Assembly: GCA_934096295.1 (NCBI GenBank)
Contig: CAKOLL010000004.1
Span: forward strand, 48,258-112,257
Direction: 5' to 3'
From: an uncultured Bacilli bacterium
GTDB taxonomy: Bacteria; Bacillota_I; Bacilli_A; RF39; UBA660
Length of the DNA stretch: 64,000 nucleotides
The notes under the pieces are model-generated. The model worked only from the letters and a program-made list of their open reading frames with translations. It did no database searches and was not told the origin of the DNA. Positions 4,096 through 61,240 of the stretch are shown in pieces (position 1 is the first letter of the stretch; each line of letters starts with the position of its first letter). Both the position numbers and the translations under genes were made by a program.

Positions 4096-5565
4096 TTATC
4101 TTTTCCTCAACTTTCTTAATATCAAATTTACATTTTCGTCTTTTACTATTAATAATCCAATTCCATAAAAACCTATACAGAGAATCATTATTAATAAAAT
4201 GTTAATATAAAAATTTAAATTAAAACATCTTATTAGCAATGATATTGGTATAAACATTAATGATAATCCCATATATAAAATATTTTGTTTAGTAAATAAT
4301 TTATAATTTATTTTCATTTTATATTTAACATGAACATACAATAATACACCTAGTATTAATTGAACTATTCCAGTCGTTATCATACATGTTAATGGAGTTA
4401 ATATTTTTGCAAACCCCATCACTAAATTAAATATTAAATTAATTATTCCCGCAATTAAAGTATATTTAACAATCTTTTTCTCTTGATTGTTTGGATACAT
4501 TACCAAATTTATTAATGTTGAATCTATGCTAATTATAATCCTTATAATAGCTGCAACCATTAAAACAGGAACTATTGCCATATATTTATCTCCAGCATAA
4601 AGATAAACTATCTCTTTGGCTAGAACAAATACACCTAAACACATTGGAATAATAATAAATAATAAAGATGACACCGCTTTATTCAATGTATTTTCATAGC
4701 TTTCTTTTCCTTCGTTATCAATTAAATATGATAGTCTAGGAATAGACACAAATATTATAGAATATGGTACTGCAACTAAAGTAGATACAATGTAATATGG
4801 AATATAATACATTGTTACTGATACACCATCTATAAATTTTCCTAATAAAACCATATCTAATTGGCTATATAATAAATCTATATTTGTGATAATTACTATT
4901 AGAAATAAAGGTTTTAAATATTTTTTTAACTCTAATGTTTTAAAATCAAATTTTATCCTTTTACTTGCATAAATGAAACTTACTATATTATTAGCAAAAA
5001 CTGTTAGACAAATTATTATTGAATATATTATTATATCTGTTGGTTTCTTTACAAATATAAATAATGATGCCATATAAAATATTTTAATTATTAAGGTTTT
5101 TAATGTTATAAACTTATAATTTTCTAGAGCTTCATTAACAAATTCTATATAAAATATATTGGCAATAATTTGAATAAGCATTAATAAATATAAAGTTCTT
5201 GTAATATCTTTAGCAATTACAAACGAATAACCAATGTATATGCCTCCAACAATAAAATTACTTATCAATGATATCACAAATAAATTTGTCAATAATTTAG
5301 AAACTTTTTTCTTATCATTTCTAATTTTACTAATTTCCTTTATTCCATATGTATAGACTCCGAAAGATGCAAATGTTAAAAATAATTGAAAATCAGCATA
5401 AACTTTATTATAAGCACCATATAGATTTACATCAAGAAGTTTAACTATGTAGGGACCTACTAAAAGAGGGATTAAAATATTTACAAAGCTCAAAATTGAT
5501 TTATATATAGTATTTTTAAACAATGATTTTTTATTTTCCAAAATATTCCTCCTAGCCATGTACAT
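4096..5565 (-). CDS. Wzx-type polysaccharide flippase (MOP superfamily)
   Basis: 489 aa, about 12-14 hydrophobic spans, in a glycan cluster. A TTG at 5541 preceded by AGGAGG is an alternative start. Confidence 0.8.
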   Translation of the reverse strand: MYMARRNILENKKSLFKNTIYKSILSFVNILIPLLVGPYIVKLLDVNLYGAYNKVYADFQLFLTFASFGVYTYGIKEISKIRNDKKKVSKLLTNLFVISLISNFIVGGIYIGYSFVIAKDITRTLYLLMLIQIIANIFYIEFVNEALENYKFITLKTLIIKIFYMASLFIFVKKPTDIIIYSIIICLTVFANNIVSFIYASKRIKFDFKTLELKKYLKPLFLIVIITNIDLLYSQLDMVLLGKFIDGVSVTMYYIPYYIVSTLVAVPYSIIFVSIPRLSYLIDNEGKESYENTLNKAVSSLLFIIIPMCLGVFVLAKEIVYLYAGDKYMAIVPVLMVAAIIRIIISIDSTLINLVMYPNNQEKKIVKYTLIAGIINLIFNLVMGFAKILTPLTCMITTGIVQLILGVLLYVHVKYKMKINYKLFTKQNILYMGLSLMFIPISLLIRCFNLNFYINILLIMILCIGFYGIGLLIVKDENVNLILRKLRKR

Positions 5566-13577: not shown

Positions 13578-13606
13578 TTGACAAAAGCATTTTTATATTG
13601 TAATAT
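13578..13606 (+). promoter_or_regulatory. near-consensus sigma-A promoter
   Basis: TTGACA (13578-13583), 17-nt spacer, TAATAT (13601-13606). Confidence 0.6.
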
Positions 13607-13612
13607 TAATTT

Positions 13613-13722
13613 ACCGGAGAGTAATCTCGTCAGGTCGATAGTTAGATTTTGATTATTTATAATTAAGCGTGCTTTGTGTACGCCATGCTAACTGGGATTA
13701 AGCTACTCATGTAGCTTTTTTT
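13613..13722 (+). ncRNA. unclassified ~110-nt structured small RNA
   Basis: It lies between the promoter above and the hairpin AAGCTAC-TCAT-GTAGCTT plus T7 (13700-13722). No ORF or SD lies inside or downstream. Internal pairings are GAGTA/TACTC, ATCTC/GGGAT, AGTTAG/CTAACT and GCGT/ACGC. Confidence 0.45.
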
Positions 13723-13805
13723 CATTTAATTAAATCTGAAGAACGAAAAAACGGAAATTTTCGTTCTATAAACACTATTTTGTTAAAATTTATAAATAAG
13801 CATTG

Positions 13806-25792: not shown

Positions 25793-26003
25793 AAAAAAAG
25801 AGCAAACATCCAAAAGGACGAATTGCTCGTGGTACCACCTTTATTTGTAATAATAGTTATTACCTCTTGTTGATAACGGATACTATCCGATTTAAAATCA
25901 TCATTTGTAATTCATTATTTTACTTTTACTTTTTTTCACCAATCACAAGCTCTCTAAAAAAAATTTAAAATAATTACTTCGAATGAATCGCTTTTTAATT
26001 AAC
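25793..26003 (-). promoter_or_regulatory. T-box riboswitch leader (probable Tyr specifier UAC)
   Basis: Read on the minus strand. Stem I starts AAGCGATTCATTCGAAGTAATTATTTTA, with AGAGAG...GGTGAAA. The specifier region is TAAAATAATGAATTACAAATGATGA. The T-box core is AAAGGTGGTACCACGAG (25826-25842). The terminator is GAGCAA...TTGCTC plus T7 (25793-25829). Confidence 0.8.
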
Positions 26004-52882: not shown

Positions 52883-52934
52883 GTTATTAGAGAATATAAA
52901 AAGATAATACTTTTTCAAATATTATCTTTAATAA

Positions 52935-53333
52935 CTAATTAATTTTTAACTTGTTTATTTCAGAAATAGATAAGTTTGTTATTTCACTTATTTCTTTTGG
53001 CGAATACTTTTTCAAAAGCATATTTTTAGCTGTTTTTATTAATCCCTTTTCTTCACCGCGTTTTTCGCCACGCTCTTCGCCACGTTACATCTCTATATTT
53101 ACTAATTCCCCATTTGATAATACAAGAACAATATCTAAATAATAGTTATGTAACTTAATATTATCGTTTTGAATGTATTTTTGTTTAGTAACTCGAACAT
53201 TTGAAATAGTTAAATCTGATTTAATATATTTTAGATATGAATTAAAGAAATCTTTTATTATTTCTTTTTTACTAAATATGTGCTTAAATATTAAATCGTT
53301 AGTAAGCCATGTAAATTCTTTTGTTTCGGTCAT
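52935..53333 (-). pseudogene. internally deleted Rpn/YhgA-like PD-(D/E)XK putative transposase remnant
   Basis: The N-terminal 82 aa (TWLTNDLIFKHIF...LDIVLVLSNGELVNIEM) end at a TAA. The same frame continues RGEERGEKRGEEKGLIKTAKNMLLKKYSPKEISEITNLSISEINKL, the typical C-terminal tail of this family. About 150-200 aa of the middle are missing. Confidence 0.55.
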
Positions 53334-58560: not shown

Positions 58561-58905
58561 TTATTCTTCTTTATCAAAGAAACTTTTTACTAAATCTAAA
58601 ATGTCATCAAAGTCTTCTTGACTACACTTTTCTATAAATTCAACATTCCTCTCAACATAATCAACACTTCTTATGTGTTCACATAATACTGCCCCTTTAA
58701 TTTTTTTAGTCTTTGTTAATTCATAATGAGTTGGAAAAGACTTAGTATTTAAGCTTACCGGGCACACTATTGCCATGTTGGTAAATTGATTAAATAATTT
58801 GCTACTTAATACTAAGGCAGGTCTTTTGCCATTTTGCTCATGCCCTTTTATTGGGCTAAAATTGATATATACAATATCTCTTTCTTTAGGTATATATTTT
58901 ACCAT
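58561..58905 (-). CDS. mazF: MazF/PemK-family endoribonuclease toxin
   Basis: IPKERDIVYINFSPIKGHEQNGKRPALVLS...AIVCPVS. Its ATG sits in ATGGTAA, abutting the mazE stop. Confidence 0.85.
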   Translation of the reverse strand: MVKYIPKERDIVYINFSPIKGHEQNGKRPALVLSSKLFNQFTNMAIVCPVSLNTKSFPTHYELTKTKKIKGAVLCEHIRSVDYVERNVEFIEKCSQEDFDDILDLVKSFFDKEE

Positions 58906-59144
58906 ATCTCTTTCCCCTTTGCTTCGTCCCAAGTAAATTTTTCGTTATCTACTTTTGAACCTTCATAATTTTTAATTCTTAGTTTTAATGACGCCTTTTC
59001 CCTTTCTACTTTTGTTATAATAATTTTGTTTTCATCGCGCACGATATTAATTGCATCCCCTGATTTTATATTCAAGGCATCTAAATAAACTTTTGGTATT
59101 CTAATTCCATTAGAATTACCCCATTTTTGTACTCTATATGCCAT
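58899..59144 (-). CDS. mazE: MazE/AbrB-fold antitoxin
   Basis: VQKWGNSNGIRIPKVYLDALNIKSGD is a SpoVT/AbrB swapped-hairpin motif. Confidence 0.8.
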   Translation of the reverse strand: MAYRVQKWGNSNGIRIPKVYLDALNIKSGDAINIVRDENKIIITKVEREKASLKLRIKNYEGSKVDNEKFTWDEAKGKEIW

Positions 59145-59212
59145 ACTTATCCCTCCATATATAATATATACAATAGTTTATATAAAAGTCAAGAGCAAAC
59201 TCATAACTTTTT

Positions 59213-59243
59213 AAAAAAAGATAAAGTTTTTACGCTTTATCTT
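59213..59243 (-). terminator. intrinsic terminator of the surface-protein gene
   Basis: AAGATAAAG pairs with CTTTATCTT (9-bp stem), with a T run on the minus strand. Confidence 0.6.
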
Positions 59244-59275: not shown

Positions 59276-61240
59276 CTAATTTATGATTATGGGGTCTGTT
59301 TGGGTTCCGGATCCTGAAACATAAGTAACTGAAGACTCGAGATTGAAGGACGGCCGAACCGCACGGTCGCCGTTCACGAAGAGGTCGCCCACGCCACCAC
59401 CGAAGCCCACAAGGAAAGCACCGTTCGAATTGTCCGCATAACGGGAAAATGTCCATTCAAAAACTCCCATGTACATCCAATTATTATTTACAACTTTATG
59501 ATAATCACCCATTATTGTTGTCCATGATTCTGGACTTGCTGCAAATCCATAATCCGATACATACATTAATCCTATTTTGGCTTCATATTCTGTTTCTCCT
59601 GTTGTTGAATATTGGCCTGGAACCGGATTTACTATTTCATTTTGGTATGCTACTGATGGAACTACATTTCTTATTTTTGCATTTGTATTTCCTCCTACTT
59701 TCCATATCGTTGTTGCTATCTTATTTGACCATTCTGTTCCAATATTATTTATAAAGTTTGTATTTAAATTTGTTTTATTTAATAAACTTGTACTCCATGT
59801 ATTTGTAGCTTTGTTTGTAGCCTTATAATTCCAATAATATACTCCGATGTCTGACATTTCTTTTGTTCCTTTATAATAATTTGTTGGCATTCCTGCTTCT
59901 TCGGCATTTTGTGAATAATCTCCATCTGTTCCAAGTAGTGTACTTGATGCATAATCATATTTTATTAATTTTACTTTATCATCTATTACTCCGATAATTC
60001 TATATAAATTATCTGTTGGACATGGACTTGCTGTTGATCCAAAACATACAAAATTTGATAAATCTTCTTGAGCTAAGGTTACCAATGTTTCTTCTCCTGC
60101 TCCCACTTCTTCTATTCCTAACAAGTATTTATTATCTGATGTACTTAAATATGCAAATCCTGTACAAGCGTCCTGTGTTACAGTTCCGCCATCAAAAGGA
60201 TATACATCGTCTCCTGAAGATGTTACGCATTTACTATTTGTACTATCCCAACTTACTGTCTTTTTATTTGTAAATAAAGTACTTAATGAATTATCTCCAT
60301 ACATGACATCACTGCCATTTGTAACTTTATAAACATTTGAACAATCTCCCTTTAACGACATGTTAGTTTGAACGTTAATATTTGTTACATCATTTCCATC
60401 ATATTTACATGAGTATAGATCTGGATGTGCATCTCCTCCTGAATATCTATATGAGTTGTCCCCTGCTCCATTTGTTAATTTGGTGTTATGAATATTTATT
60501 TTTGATGTGTCATAGCCTAAATTGCCATATTTTACGATACAATCTTTTAAGTTTTCTCCATCACTACAATAATCTGCTATTGTTGGATTGTATCCTCCTT
60601 TTTTAACTACAACTTTTGCTCCAAAATTCTTTCCAGCATTTTTTGATTGGTCTGCATTATAGTTTATCATTGTTATTGTAATATTCCATTGTTCTTCTTT
60701 TCTTGGGTTTGCTGTTATTTCCCTATTATCTAATATTGTTACTAATCCTGTTACTCCAGTTATATCATATCCTGATATTGATGCTCCACTTGCATCTGTT
60801 ACTGTTTTATATGTTAAATTTGATAAATTTGTTATGGCATTTCCATCTGCATCTGTTATGCTTAGTATCAATTCTGGTGTGTCTGTATTTATTGAATAAC
60901 CAAATGTATTTGTATATATACTTAGATACAAATAGTAATTTTGTGTTGCTGTATTTGTCTTACTATTTGCAGTCAATAATGCTTTGGCAAATGTTGAACC
61001 TGTTTGGTTACCAGTCCCTTGTGCAAAGTTTTCTTGATCTAACGTTAATGTGATTGGATCTCCGGTTTCAAATGTTAAGGTATCCACAGTATTTGCATTA
61101 ATCCTGATATCTGTTTGTGAACCTTCTCCAGTCTGTGCTGCAAAATATGCATATGTTGCTCCGATGATTAATATTATTAATGCTAACAATGATACTATTG
61201 TTACTATTTTTGTTTTGTTCTTTTCCATATTTACTACCAC
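59276..61240 (-). CDS. secreted/surface protein with a SipW-type signal peptide and a C-terminal lectin-like (DUF1566-like) module
   Basis: The N-terminus LIILIIGATYAYFAAQTG matches the TasA/SipW-class signal. The C-terminus EWTFSRYADNSNGAFLVGF...DRAVRPSFNL resembles the W..S...A..V.....G....VR. ending of DUF1566-type domains. Confidence 0.7.
   Translation of the reverse strand: MVVNMEKNKTKIVTIVSLLALIILIIGATYAYFAAQTGEGSQTDIRINANTVDTLTFETGDPITLTLDQENFAQGTGNQTGSTFAKALLTANSKTNTATQNYYLYLSIYTNTFGYSINTDTPELILSITDADGNAITNLSNLTYKTVTDASGASISGYDITGVTGLVTILDNREITANPRKEEQWNITITMINYNADQSKNAGKNFGAKVVVKKGGYNPTIADYCSDGENLKDCIVKYGNLGYDTSKINIHNTKLTNGAGDNSYRYSGGDAHPDLYSCKYDGNDVTNINVQTNMSLKGDCSNVYKVTNGSDVMYGDNSLSTLFTNKKTVSWDSTNSKCVTSSGDDVYPFDGGTVTQDACTGFAYLSTSDNKYLLGIEEVGAGEETLVTLAQEDLSNFVCFGSTASPCPTDNLYRIIGVIDDKVKLIKYDYASSTLLGTDGDYSQNAEEAGMPTNYYKGTKEMSDIGVYYWNYKATNKATNTWSTSLLNKTNLNTNFINNIGTEWSNKIATTIWKVGGNTNAKIRNVVPSVAYQNEIVNPVPGQYSTTGETEYEAKIGLMYVSDYGFAASPESWTTIMGDYHKVVNNNWMYMGVFEWTFSRYADNSNGAFLVGFGGGVGDLFVNGDRAVRPSFNLESSVTYVSGSGTQTDPIIIN
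59335..59446 (-). other. GC-rich, adenine-poor, NNC-codon-rich segment at the 3' end of the gene (candidate DGR variable region)
   Basis: My counts: 61 G+C per 100 nt in 59341-59440, against 34 per 100 in 59461-59560. Coding-strand A is 12 per 100. 17 of 37 codons are NNC. Confidence 0.45.

Follow-up and report, generated by a model that had tools for sequence, protein, structure and literature searches.

Near the end of a 64,000-nucleotide (nt) stretch of contig CAKOLL010000004.1 (positions 48,258 to 112,257), from an uncultured Bacilli bacterium, the 3' part of a minus-strand gene becomes abruptly rich in G and C, and the question raised by this locus is how such an island came to lie in so AT-rich a genome. 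We refer to the whole 64-kb stretch as the window and use its coordinates unless another locus is named. We conclude, with a probability of about 85%, that the island is the variable region (VR) of a target gene of a diversity-generating retroelement (DGR), that the template and the reverse transcriptase (RT) lie elsewhere, and that this copy looks static. An earlier note on this DNA, made from the letters alone, had already read the island as a DGR variable region, and that reading is supported by a matching template repeat (TR), by mismatches that fall at adenines only, and by a cassette that carries Avd and RT genes.

The island is real and far beyond chance. The GC content of the window is 25.5% (100-nt windows have a mean of 0.255 and a standard deviation of 0.057), and the peak 100-nt value of 0.63, at 59338, is a far outlier within the 64 kb. 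The sole 100-nt windows with at least 50% GC start at 59279–59384 (stretch 59279–59484). Every composition count in the earlier note was reproduced on recounting: there are 61 G+C in 59341–59440 vs 34 in 59461–59560, adenine makes up 12 per 100 of the coding strand of the island, and NNC codons (N, any base) occupy 17 of the 37 positions from S599 to E635 and 10 of the 14 in GFGGGVGDLFVNGD, compared with 8.7% (n = 608) in the rest of the gene. The boundaries of the segment originally flagged, 59285–59450, have to be adjusted, since the DGR-homologous part, 59350–59449, is slightly shifted and shorter, and the 3' part, 59276–59349, falls outside the template homology.

The window holds no partner for the island. 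Neither blastn-short nor an adenine-tolerant ungapped scan of both strands found a second copy of the VR in the 64 kb, a six-frame search for Y[AVIMLCT]DD within open frames found no RT there, and a tblastn search for further paralogs in the window returned the gene itself only. The observation that these 64 kb contain neither an RT nor a template repeat is therefore borne out by the copy scan and the motif search.

A template repeat in the same metagenome sample

Homologs that are 82–98% identical to the window protein differ from it mainly in one segment, in which a fixed scaffold is kept (W.W T.SR.A..S..AF.V....V....V....AVRP). At the DNA level, the gene of a 94%-identical paralog (L005) differs from the window gene at 2 positions in nt 1100–1718 and at 23 in nt 1719–1860, and the differences inside the TR-homologous part are all at codon positions 1 or 2 of NNC or NNT codons, which is the pattern expected of a template with AAC and AAT codons. 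We scanned species-representative genomes and metagenomes with a predicted template that has A at all variable sites, and this query matched 4 loci in the former and 46 in the latter. In Firmicutes bacterium CAG:460 (L011, FR899774.1) the match, ISRNADNSNNAFNVNNDGNVNNNNVNNNNGVRA, is non-coding. Its distance downstream from the start of the VR in a homologous target gene is 376 nt, and it is followed by open reading frames (ORFs) of 145 and 122 aa and a 363-aa RT with the motifs LPIGNMTSQ and YMDD. The layout of L011 is repeated in L059, L064–L070 and L071–L074, and cassettes of the type with a MutS-like (MSL) gene are present in both CAG:460 (FR899774.1) and CAG:609 (FR903523.1).

One of these cassettes comes from the sample of the window itself. 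The contig of the window, identified indirectly by way of cluster member P0124, is NODE_277 (140,373 bp, coverage 25.8) of the Hadza gut metagenome ERZ4561693, with 14 differences from the window over 14.7 kb, and cassette L072 is NODE_4003 (26.5 kb, coverage 33.5) of the same metagenome. We infer from the shared sample and the similar coverage that window and cassette are co-resident in one genome, in which case VR and TR would be at least about 40 kb apart, by arithmetic from the contig coordinates, if both contigs belong to one replicon. Tetranucleotide correlations, all between 0.95 and 0.99, do not separate same-genome from related-genome contigs. The same sample also contains the paralogs L005, on NODE_192 (coverage 28.6), and L003, on NODE_67 (coverage 24.2).

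The L072 cassette consists, in order, of a 650-aa target gene next to the template (the cis target), which is 92.8% identical to the window gene at the nucleotide level, the TR, a 125-aa MutS_I-like ORF, a 117-aa Avd-like ORF, a 365-aa RVT_1 ORF and an 82-aa ORF. The TR is a 100-nt sequence at 4879–4978 of that locus, ATTTCCCGTAATGCGGACAATTCGAACAATGCTTTCAATGTGAACAACGATGGTAACGTGAACAACAACAACGTGAACAACAACAATGCGGTTCGGCCGT. It is the second copy of the island segment that a DGR would entail, found as non-coding DNA, and the Avd-like and DGR-type RT genes that the earlier note had proposed to look for beside such a copy follow it on this other contig.

Comparison of the two repeats gives a clear result. 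The window VR (59350–59449, minus strand), a stretch of 100 nt that is collinear with the template repeat and forms the core of the GC island, has 25 mismatches to the L072 TR, all of them among the 35 TR adenines, and 0 at the 65 non-A positions, in agreement with the expectation that mismatches be restricted to template adenines. These substitutions are 14 to G, 8 to T and 3 to C. Against the TR of L059, over 96 nt, there are 24 mismatches at A and 1 at a non-A position (GCT vs GCG; Fisher p = 1e-13), and the latter vanishes when the L072 TR is used, as expected of the cognate template. The VR of L005, termed VR-B below, differs from the L072 TR at 22 positions, and all 22 are adenines. Over 34 distinct TR/VR pairs of the family, 10 of 2,232 non-A sites differ vs 642 of 1,174 A sites (55%); 45% of the A sites stay A, and the remainder became G (310), T (241) or C (91).

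The same comparison accounts for the composition of the island. The TR, at 47% GC, is GC-rich for its genome, C makes up 37%, G 35.5% and T 27% of its non-A positions (73% G+C), and substitutions of its adenines favour G; VRs are GC-rich for these reasons, with a family mean of 56% (range 44–66%). The window VR, in which 25 of 35 A sites are substituted and 14 of these became G, is heavily substituted and so reaches 63.5%. Coding-strand adenine is depleted because the element removes adenines. The preference of the TR scaffold for G and C over T might, as a guess, serve to stabilise the heteroduplex between cDNA and target.

The genes of the cassette match those of known DGRs. The 365-aa protein of L072 matches RVT_1 and carries IGNMTSQ and YMDD, and the closest solved structure to the cassette RT is that of a 328-aa reverse transcriptase, 8ub7 (E 8e-19), which we take to be bRT of phage BPP-1, ahead of group II intron RTs. 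The 117-aa ORF matches NF033474 (DivGenRetAVD) with E 1e-8 and bAvd with 1e-5, both under the curated cut-offs, and the 125-aa ORF matches MutS domain I (MutS_I) with E 2.5e-6. An ORF of 81–83 aa overlaps the RT stop codon in every cassette type examined (L011 3234–3479, L059 6228–6476, L064 6082–6327, L072 7088–7336); it has no Pfam or NCBIfam match and may be an additional accessory gene. The RT group P0137, the most prevalent relative, was considered as the cognate element and rejected because its TR differs (TCCCGCAATTCTGAT...). Viral contigs were scanned with the VR scaffold and the VR 3' end, and neither scan found a match, so that there is no sign of a phage-borne cassette.

Several further observations concern the non-coding parts of these loci. 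The spacer of about 300 nt from the stop codon of the cis target to the TR contains conserved GC-rich hairpins (L011 950–1150, L059 3800–4020, L064 3790–4090), among them GTTTGTCTAGC..GCTAGGCAAAC and, directly before the TR on its upstream side, the element GGCTGCCG..GCGG..GGCAG..GTGGCAG. These hairpins may be part of the DGR RNA or have a role in recognising the target; a search of the cassette loci with Rfam returned no family in the spacer or in the region after the TR. In L017, L042, L058 and L049, all TR loci found by scanning metagenomes, the TR stops after ...GATGGTAACG and is followed by unrelated AT-rich DNA, with the same junction in three contigs and a different one in L049, and these look like cassette-deletion variants circulating in gut populations. 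In L008 (2700–2900, minus strand; CAKORG010000025.1, a metagenome-assembled genome of Hadza Bacilli), the first 39 nt of the TR, preceded by its GC-rich element, are joined to a 3' half that resembles a VR and to the coding tail of another paralog, with a frameshift; no RT is present within the 4.9 kb. This locus looks like the product of a recombination between TR and VR that broke the cassette.

The target protein and its C-terminal domain

In the ORF list the target gene is 59276–61240 on the minus strand, a mechanical ORF of 654 aa from a GTG at 61240. The true start is likely the ATG at 61228, as the exact 650-aa form that begins there is present in public collections (P0121); the gene of this DGR target family would then span 59276–61228 and encode 650 aa plus a stop codon. 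A membrane anchor at the N-terminus of the protein is followed by beta-rich middle domains and, at the C-terminus, by a lectin-like domain in which the VR lies. Its homologs number more than 7,600, and none of them has a Pfam domain; the window protein itself returned no match in Pfam (E <= 1) or NCBIfam.

An AlphaFold model of all 650 residues has a mean pLDDT (predicted local distance difference test) of 79, and its Foldseek matches are mostly beta-sandwich domains; as these were uninformative, a model of the domain alone was needed. The C-terminal 260 aa (59279–60058, minus strand) were predicted with a pLDDT of 92.6 and a predicted template modeling score (pTM) of 0.90. With this model, the best Foldseek match in the PDB is 9qa6, an IgA peptidase of Thomasclavelia ramosa (E 8e-9), the N-terminal domain of which has been described as a domain that is C-type-lectin-like (a CTLD) and resembles Legionella Lcl-C (PMC12237041). 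Next come 8q4e, Lcl-C itself (E 0.41), and then classical C-type lectins, none of them significant. A PDB sequence search with the same domain gave no match.

Among the viral models of BFVD, the best matches of the domain are receptor-binding proteins of gut phages and phage DUF6273 proteins, the latter with E-values of the order of 1e-7 to 1e-4 (reaching 5e-7), and DUF1566 proteins score lower, below significance (E 0.02–0.08). Pfam gives weak DUF6273 matches in 27 of 65 homologs (best E 2.4e-5) and none in the window protein; the one homolog inspected, P0078, scores 18.6 bits, under the gathering score of 23.5. DUF1566 matches neither the window protein (E <= 1) nor any of the 65 homologs. 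The earlier note's comparison to a DUF1566-type ending thus captured the fold class, which is CTLD-like, and not the family membership. In these models the fold is C-type-lectin-like and closest to DUF6273 and Lcl-C, and the VR encodes the last strands and loops of the predicted domain. It sits at the 3' end of the gene, with 74 nt between its end and the stop codon. Codons 593–594 (VF, AW, YN) were considered as a 5' part of the VR and rejected: they do not vary between samples that share a TR, and nothing in the TR corresponds to them, so that they represent lineage differences.

Variability of cassette-adjacent and remote variable regions

VRs adjacent to a cassette (cis VRs) are highly variable across the family. 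Where the flanks are near-clonal (0–3 nt per 1–1.8 kb), 19–25 VR positions differ, and the overall range is 19–29 per 100. Between L071 and L072 there are differences at 29 of 100 VR positions, at 0 of 301 nt from VR to TR and at 21 of 6,000 nt downstream, and an identical RT and TR occur in seven samples with seven different VRs. At targets next to a cassette the DGR family is clearly active. The window VR, by contrast, is the same in five assemblies (the window, L012, L060, L062 and L063), of which L012 and L060 are two samples of another study with flanks identical to those of the window, and L063, from a different Hadza sample, has 97 other differences in the gene. Hypervariability in the NNC codons, as the earlier note anticipated it, is found in cis VRs and, at codon positions 1 and 2 only, in paralogs and homologs, and is not seen at this locus. 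Its suggestion of a remote target or a fossil is a fitting way to see the island: the cassette lies outside the 64 kb, and the invariance in five assemblies leans to a frozen or rarely used copy. Another remote copy in the same sample, that of L003, has 2 non-A changes and a 3-nt deletion in its VR, and its protein is identical on 23 contigs; L003 is a decayed copy.

The sequences that follow the VR also differ between cis and remote copies. The VR ends in a GC-rich, adenine-free segment, GCGGTTCGGCCGT (59350–59362, minus strand), that is the same as the end of the TR and is identical in the window VR and in the TRs of L072, L059 and L020, and TR and VR diverge right after it. At that point the window carries a conserved, VR-specific sequence of 19 nt, CCTTCAATCTCGAGTCTTC (59331–59349, minus strand), and the TR carries AGACCTTTATAG... 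in its place; CCTTCAATCTCGAGTCTTC follows every VR of the family, cis or remote, and is absent after every TR. By analogy with the model developed for Bordetella phage BPP-1, we regard GCGGTTCGGCCGT as a candidate counterpart of the (GC)14 part of the initiation of mutagenic homing (IMH) sequence, where cDNA integration putatively starts, and CCTTCAATCTCGAGTCTTC as a candidate counterpart of the 21-bp IMH element. The IMH-like arrangement, GCGGTTCGGCCGT and then CCTTCAATCTCGAGTCTTC, is intact in the window.

Beyond this point the similarity with cis targets is lost. In BPP-1, a GC-rich hairpin or cruciform 4–34 bp after the VR is required for homing in addition to the IMH (PMC3240598, Guo et al. 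2011). Here, cis targets have a GC-rich inverted repeat, ATCGGG...CCCGAT (IR1), about 31 nt past the end of TR homology, and the pattern ATCGG-N12-24-CCGAT is present in 31 of 31 cis targets and absent in the window, in its orthologs and in the L001 type. A second repeat (IR2), GTTTGTCTAGC...GCTAGGCAAAC, follows the stop codon of cis targets, and one lineage has a compensatory GCTTG...CAAGC. In the window, the 3' tail (59276–59330, minus strand) encodes SVTYVSGSGTQTDPIIIN and the stop codon and keeps the SGSG..DPI motif of cis targets, with synonymous codons of an AT-type; because of these codons IR1 is not formed. The post-stop IR2 is missing as well, and just a weak 5-bp A/T stem is found. 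DNA folding gives a hairpin at the IR1 position for four types of cis target and no such hairpin for the window.

Where copies of the window locus differ, they do so within the target gene. L012 has 31 differences from the window in 4 patches, all within the gene (59683–61177), and 0 in 12.7 kb of flanks; L062, a contig from ERZ4561693, has 14 differences in the same interval, all of which are L005 bases. This distribution suggests that paralogs have exchanged patches by gene conversion, or that the assemblies are chimeric between them. Furthermore, the window VR (VR-A), VR-B (L005 11780–11880) and the cis VR of L071 (4481–4580) have 12 shared substituted states each, and 117 cis pairs share a mean of 4.4 and a maximum of 11. 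Such sharing suggests either common VR descent or a G bias combined with selection for glycine.

The reading that we favor, of a DGR variable region that has become static, would work as follows. A cassette elsewhere in the genome, with a 100-nt TR, a small MutS-like protein, Avd and a DGR reverse transcriptase, would supply a TR RNA that is reverse-transcribed with random misincorporation opposite adenines, and the cDNA would replace the homologous 3' end of a target gene, rewriting the AAC and AAT codons of a C-type-lectin-like binding surface. The window gene is a non-adjacent paralog, and its VR would stem from an earlier homing event, either directly or through duplication or gene conversion of such a product. 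It is a copy of the TR with 25 of 35 adenines substituted, and this, together with the GC-rich template and the preference for G, raises the GC content to about 63% over 100 nt in a gene of 25% GC. As the VR is identical in five assemblies and lacks the GC-rich inverted repeats, it is probably no longer rewritten, or only rarely. The inverted repeats may act as a recognition hairpin, as in BPP-1, and their absence may be the cause of stasis.

Several points weigh against parts of this reading. The inverted repeats have loops of 16–18 nt, vs the 4-nt GRNA loops of BPP-1, and their fold z-scores are not significant. VR-B has IR1 and yet is identical in its three carrier proteins, so that the inverted repeat alone does not predict variability. 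The five assemblies that share the window VR may be non-independent, since three have clonal flanks and two come from one study. The window VR shows no decay at its 65 non-A sites and keeps both the GC-rich end and the 19-nt element, and could still be a competent target. Finally, the assignment of window and cassette to one genome rests on a shared sample and on coverages of 25.8x vs 33.5x, not on a closed assembly.

Some of these points would fit a target that is still active in trans, rewritten less often than the adjacent VR, with the shared VR marking one recently spread clone. DGRs with remote targets have been documented, and avd-TR-brt can act in trans (PMC5758913); the VR has no mismatch at non-A sites and is followed by intact GC-rich and VR-specific elements, and the identical flanks of the window, L012 and L060 imply very recent divergence. 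Against this, cis VRs differ by 19–29 nt between equally clonal contigs, L063 has the same VR in spite of its 97 differences elsewhere in the gene, and the GC-rich inverted repeat that BPP-1 requires for homing (PMC3240598) is missing after the window VR; we consider an active trans target doubtful. We would give slightly more weight, still tentatively, to the proposal that this locus was never a homing target and that its VR was diversified at a cassette-adjacent gene and then duplicated or gene-converted into a gene with a new 3' tail. Paralogs do swap patches, as the in-gene differences of L012 and L062 and the L005 bases in the latter indicate; homology to the cis target extends 19 nt past the VR and stops where the tails become different; and the 12 states shared by VR-A, VR-B and the L071 cis VR exceed the maximum among cis pairs. 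This sharing is also explicable by G bias and glycine selection in heavily substituted VRs, however, and no cis donor VR identical to VR-A was found. The proposal moreover overlaps with the static part of the favored reading, and the present data do not separate it from past homing in situ. By comparison, an origin in a GC-rich donor organism, by horizontal transfer or gene conversion and without any retroelement, which the earlier note had offered as its alternative, has a negligible probability. It would explain the abrupt change in composition only; at all non-A bases the segment agrees with a TR that is endogenous to the same lineage, that TR sits in contigs of close relatives with 26–29% GC, and variation among the copies is adenine-specific, and we reject it on these grounds.

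One can imagine, as a speculation that we think unlikely, a two-tier system in these uncultured gut Bacilli that diversifies a very large family of surface lectins. In the first tier a chromosomal DGR with MutS-like and Avd genes would continuously rewrite the one cassette-adjacent VR; in the second, finished VRs would spread, through patchy gene conversion or an occasional homing event in trans, to several remote paralogs and be archived there in fixed form. Synonymous recoding of the downstream inverted repeat would be the switch between writable and archived copies, and the excess of shared states among VR-A, VR-B and a cis VR would be a trace of archiving.

Surroundings of the gene and relation to known systems

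Downstream of the target gene lie MazE/MazF, gltX and cysS, and upstream of it a helix-turn-helix gene, trxB and lgt. The MazE/MazF (PemK) toxin–antitoxin pair, at 58561–59144, lies directly downstream of the target gene and upstream of gltX. After the target stop codon, an AT-rich hairpin with a T-run can be read by eye at about 59211–59242, which an intrinsic terminator scan did not flag. A fragment at 52894–53285 is 96.5% identical to the left end of cassette contig L059 (1–848), and the orthologous ORF of L012 has a weak PDDEXK_2 match; this is probably a repeated mobile-element remnant common to these loci. Two Rfam matches at gathering score, a DUF3800-I small RNA at 13606–13730 (53.9 bits) and a T-box leader at 25811–26000 (98.6 bits), are unrelated to the island.

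As remote DGR targets and MSL-type cassettes have already been described (PMC5758913), the window VR adds one more example to a kind of system already known. What goes beyond the routine is the composition signature, the distinction between writable cis copies and fixed remote copies, and the excess of shared states. In very AT-rich genomes a DGR VR can be detected by composition alone, as a GC spike of about 100 nt with few coding-strand adenines and with NNC and NNT codons at the 3' end of a gene; metagenome surveys that require the VR to lie beside the RT miss remote copies, as Roux et al. 2021 state explicitly. The contrast between cis VRs that differ in nearly every sample and fixed remote VRs that differ from them in the downstream inverted repeats offers a ready test of the features that render a DGR target writable. 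The diversified protein is a member of a large, unannotated family of membrane-anchored, lectin-like surface proteins in uncultured Bacilli of the human gut, and its variable domain is predicted to have the fold seen in phage receptor-binding proteins and at the N-terminus of a gut IgA protease.

The element most readily compared with this one is the DGR of Bordetella phage BPP-1 (mtd/TR/avd/brt). The two share adenine-specific substitution from TR to VR, a TR with AAC and AAT codons, a VR at the 3' end of a gene for a C-type-lectin-like fold, a GC-rich, A-free 3' end common to TR and VR that is followed by VR-specific sequence, and the presence of Avd and RT. The cassette described here differs in its order, target-TR-MSL-avd-RT, and has two additional genes, one MutS-like and one an ORF of 82 aa; its location is chromosomal, and no phage genes were seen around it; long loops, and not a 4-nt GRNA loop, mark the inverted repeats that follow its cis VRs; and the window VR is not adjacent to it.

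In its gene content the cassette resembles the DGRs of Architecture D, which are defined by MSL accessory genes, include the Legionella DGR, and encode MSL proteins of 112–283 aa that always occur with avd (Wu et al. 2018, PMC5758913). The 125-aa MutS_I-like ORF likewise co-occurs with avd, and the host lineage, uncultured low-GC gut Bacilli, is different. The likeness in fold extends to the CTLDs of DUF6273 and DUF1566 (Lcl C-terminal) proteins: the predicted structure of the last 260 aa matches 9qa6 and the phage DUF6273 proteins, whereas the window protein has no significant Pfam match and its resemblance to the DUF1566/Lcl-C fold reaches E-values of just 0.02–0.4. With respect to the arrangement of its targets, the system resembles the DGR of Treponema denticola, which has multiple remote targets, and other DGRs with non-adjacent targets, the VRs of which are recognised by A-only differences (Wu et al. 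2018, PMC5758913). In those as here, one TR is related to several paralogous target genes at separate loci; in the gut Bacilli, the remote copies look static (VR-A and VR-B) or decayed (L003), while the cis copy varies in every sample.

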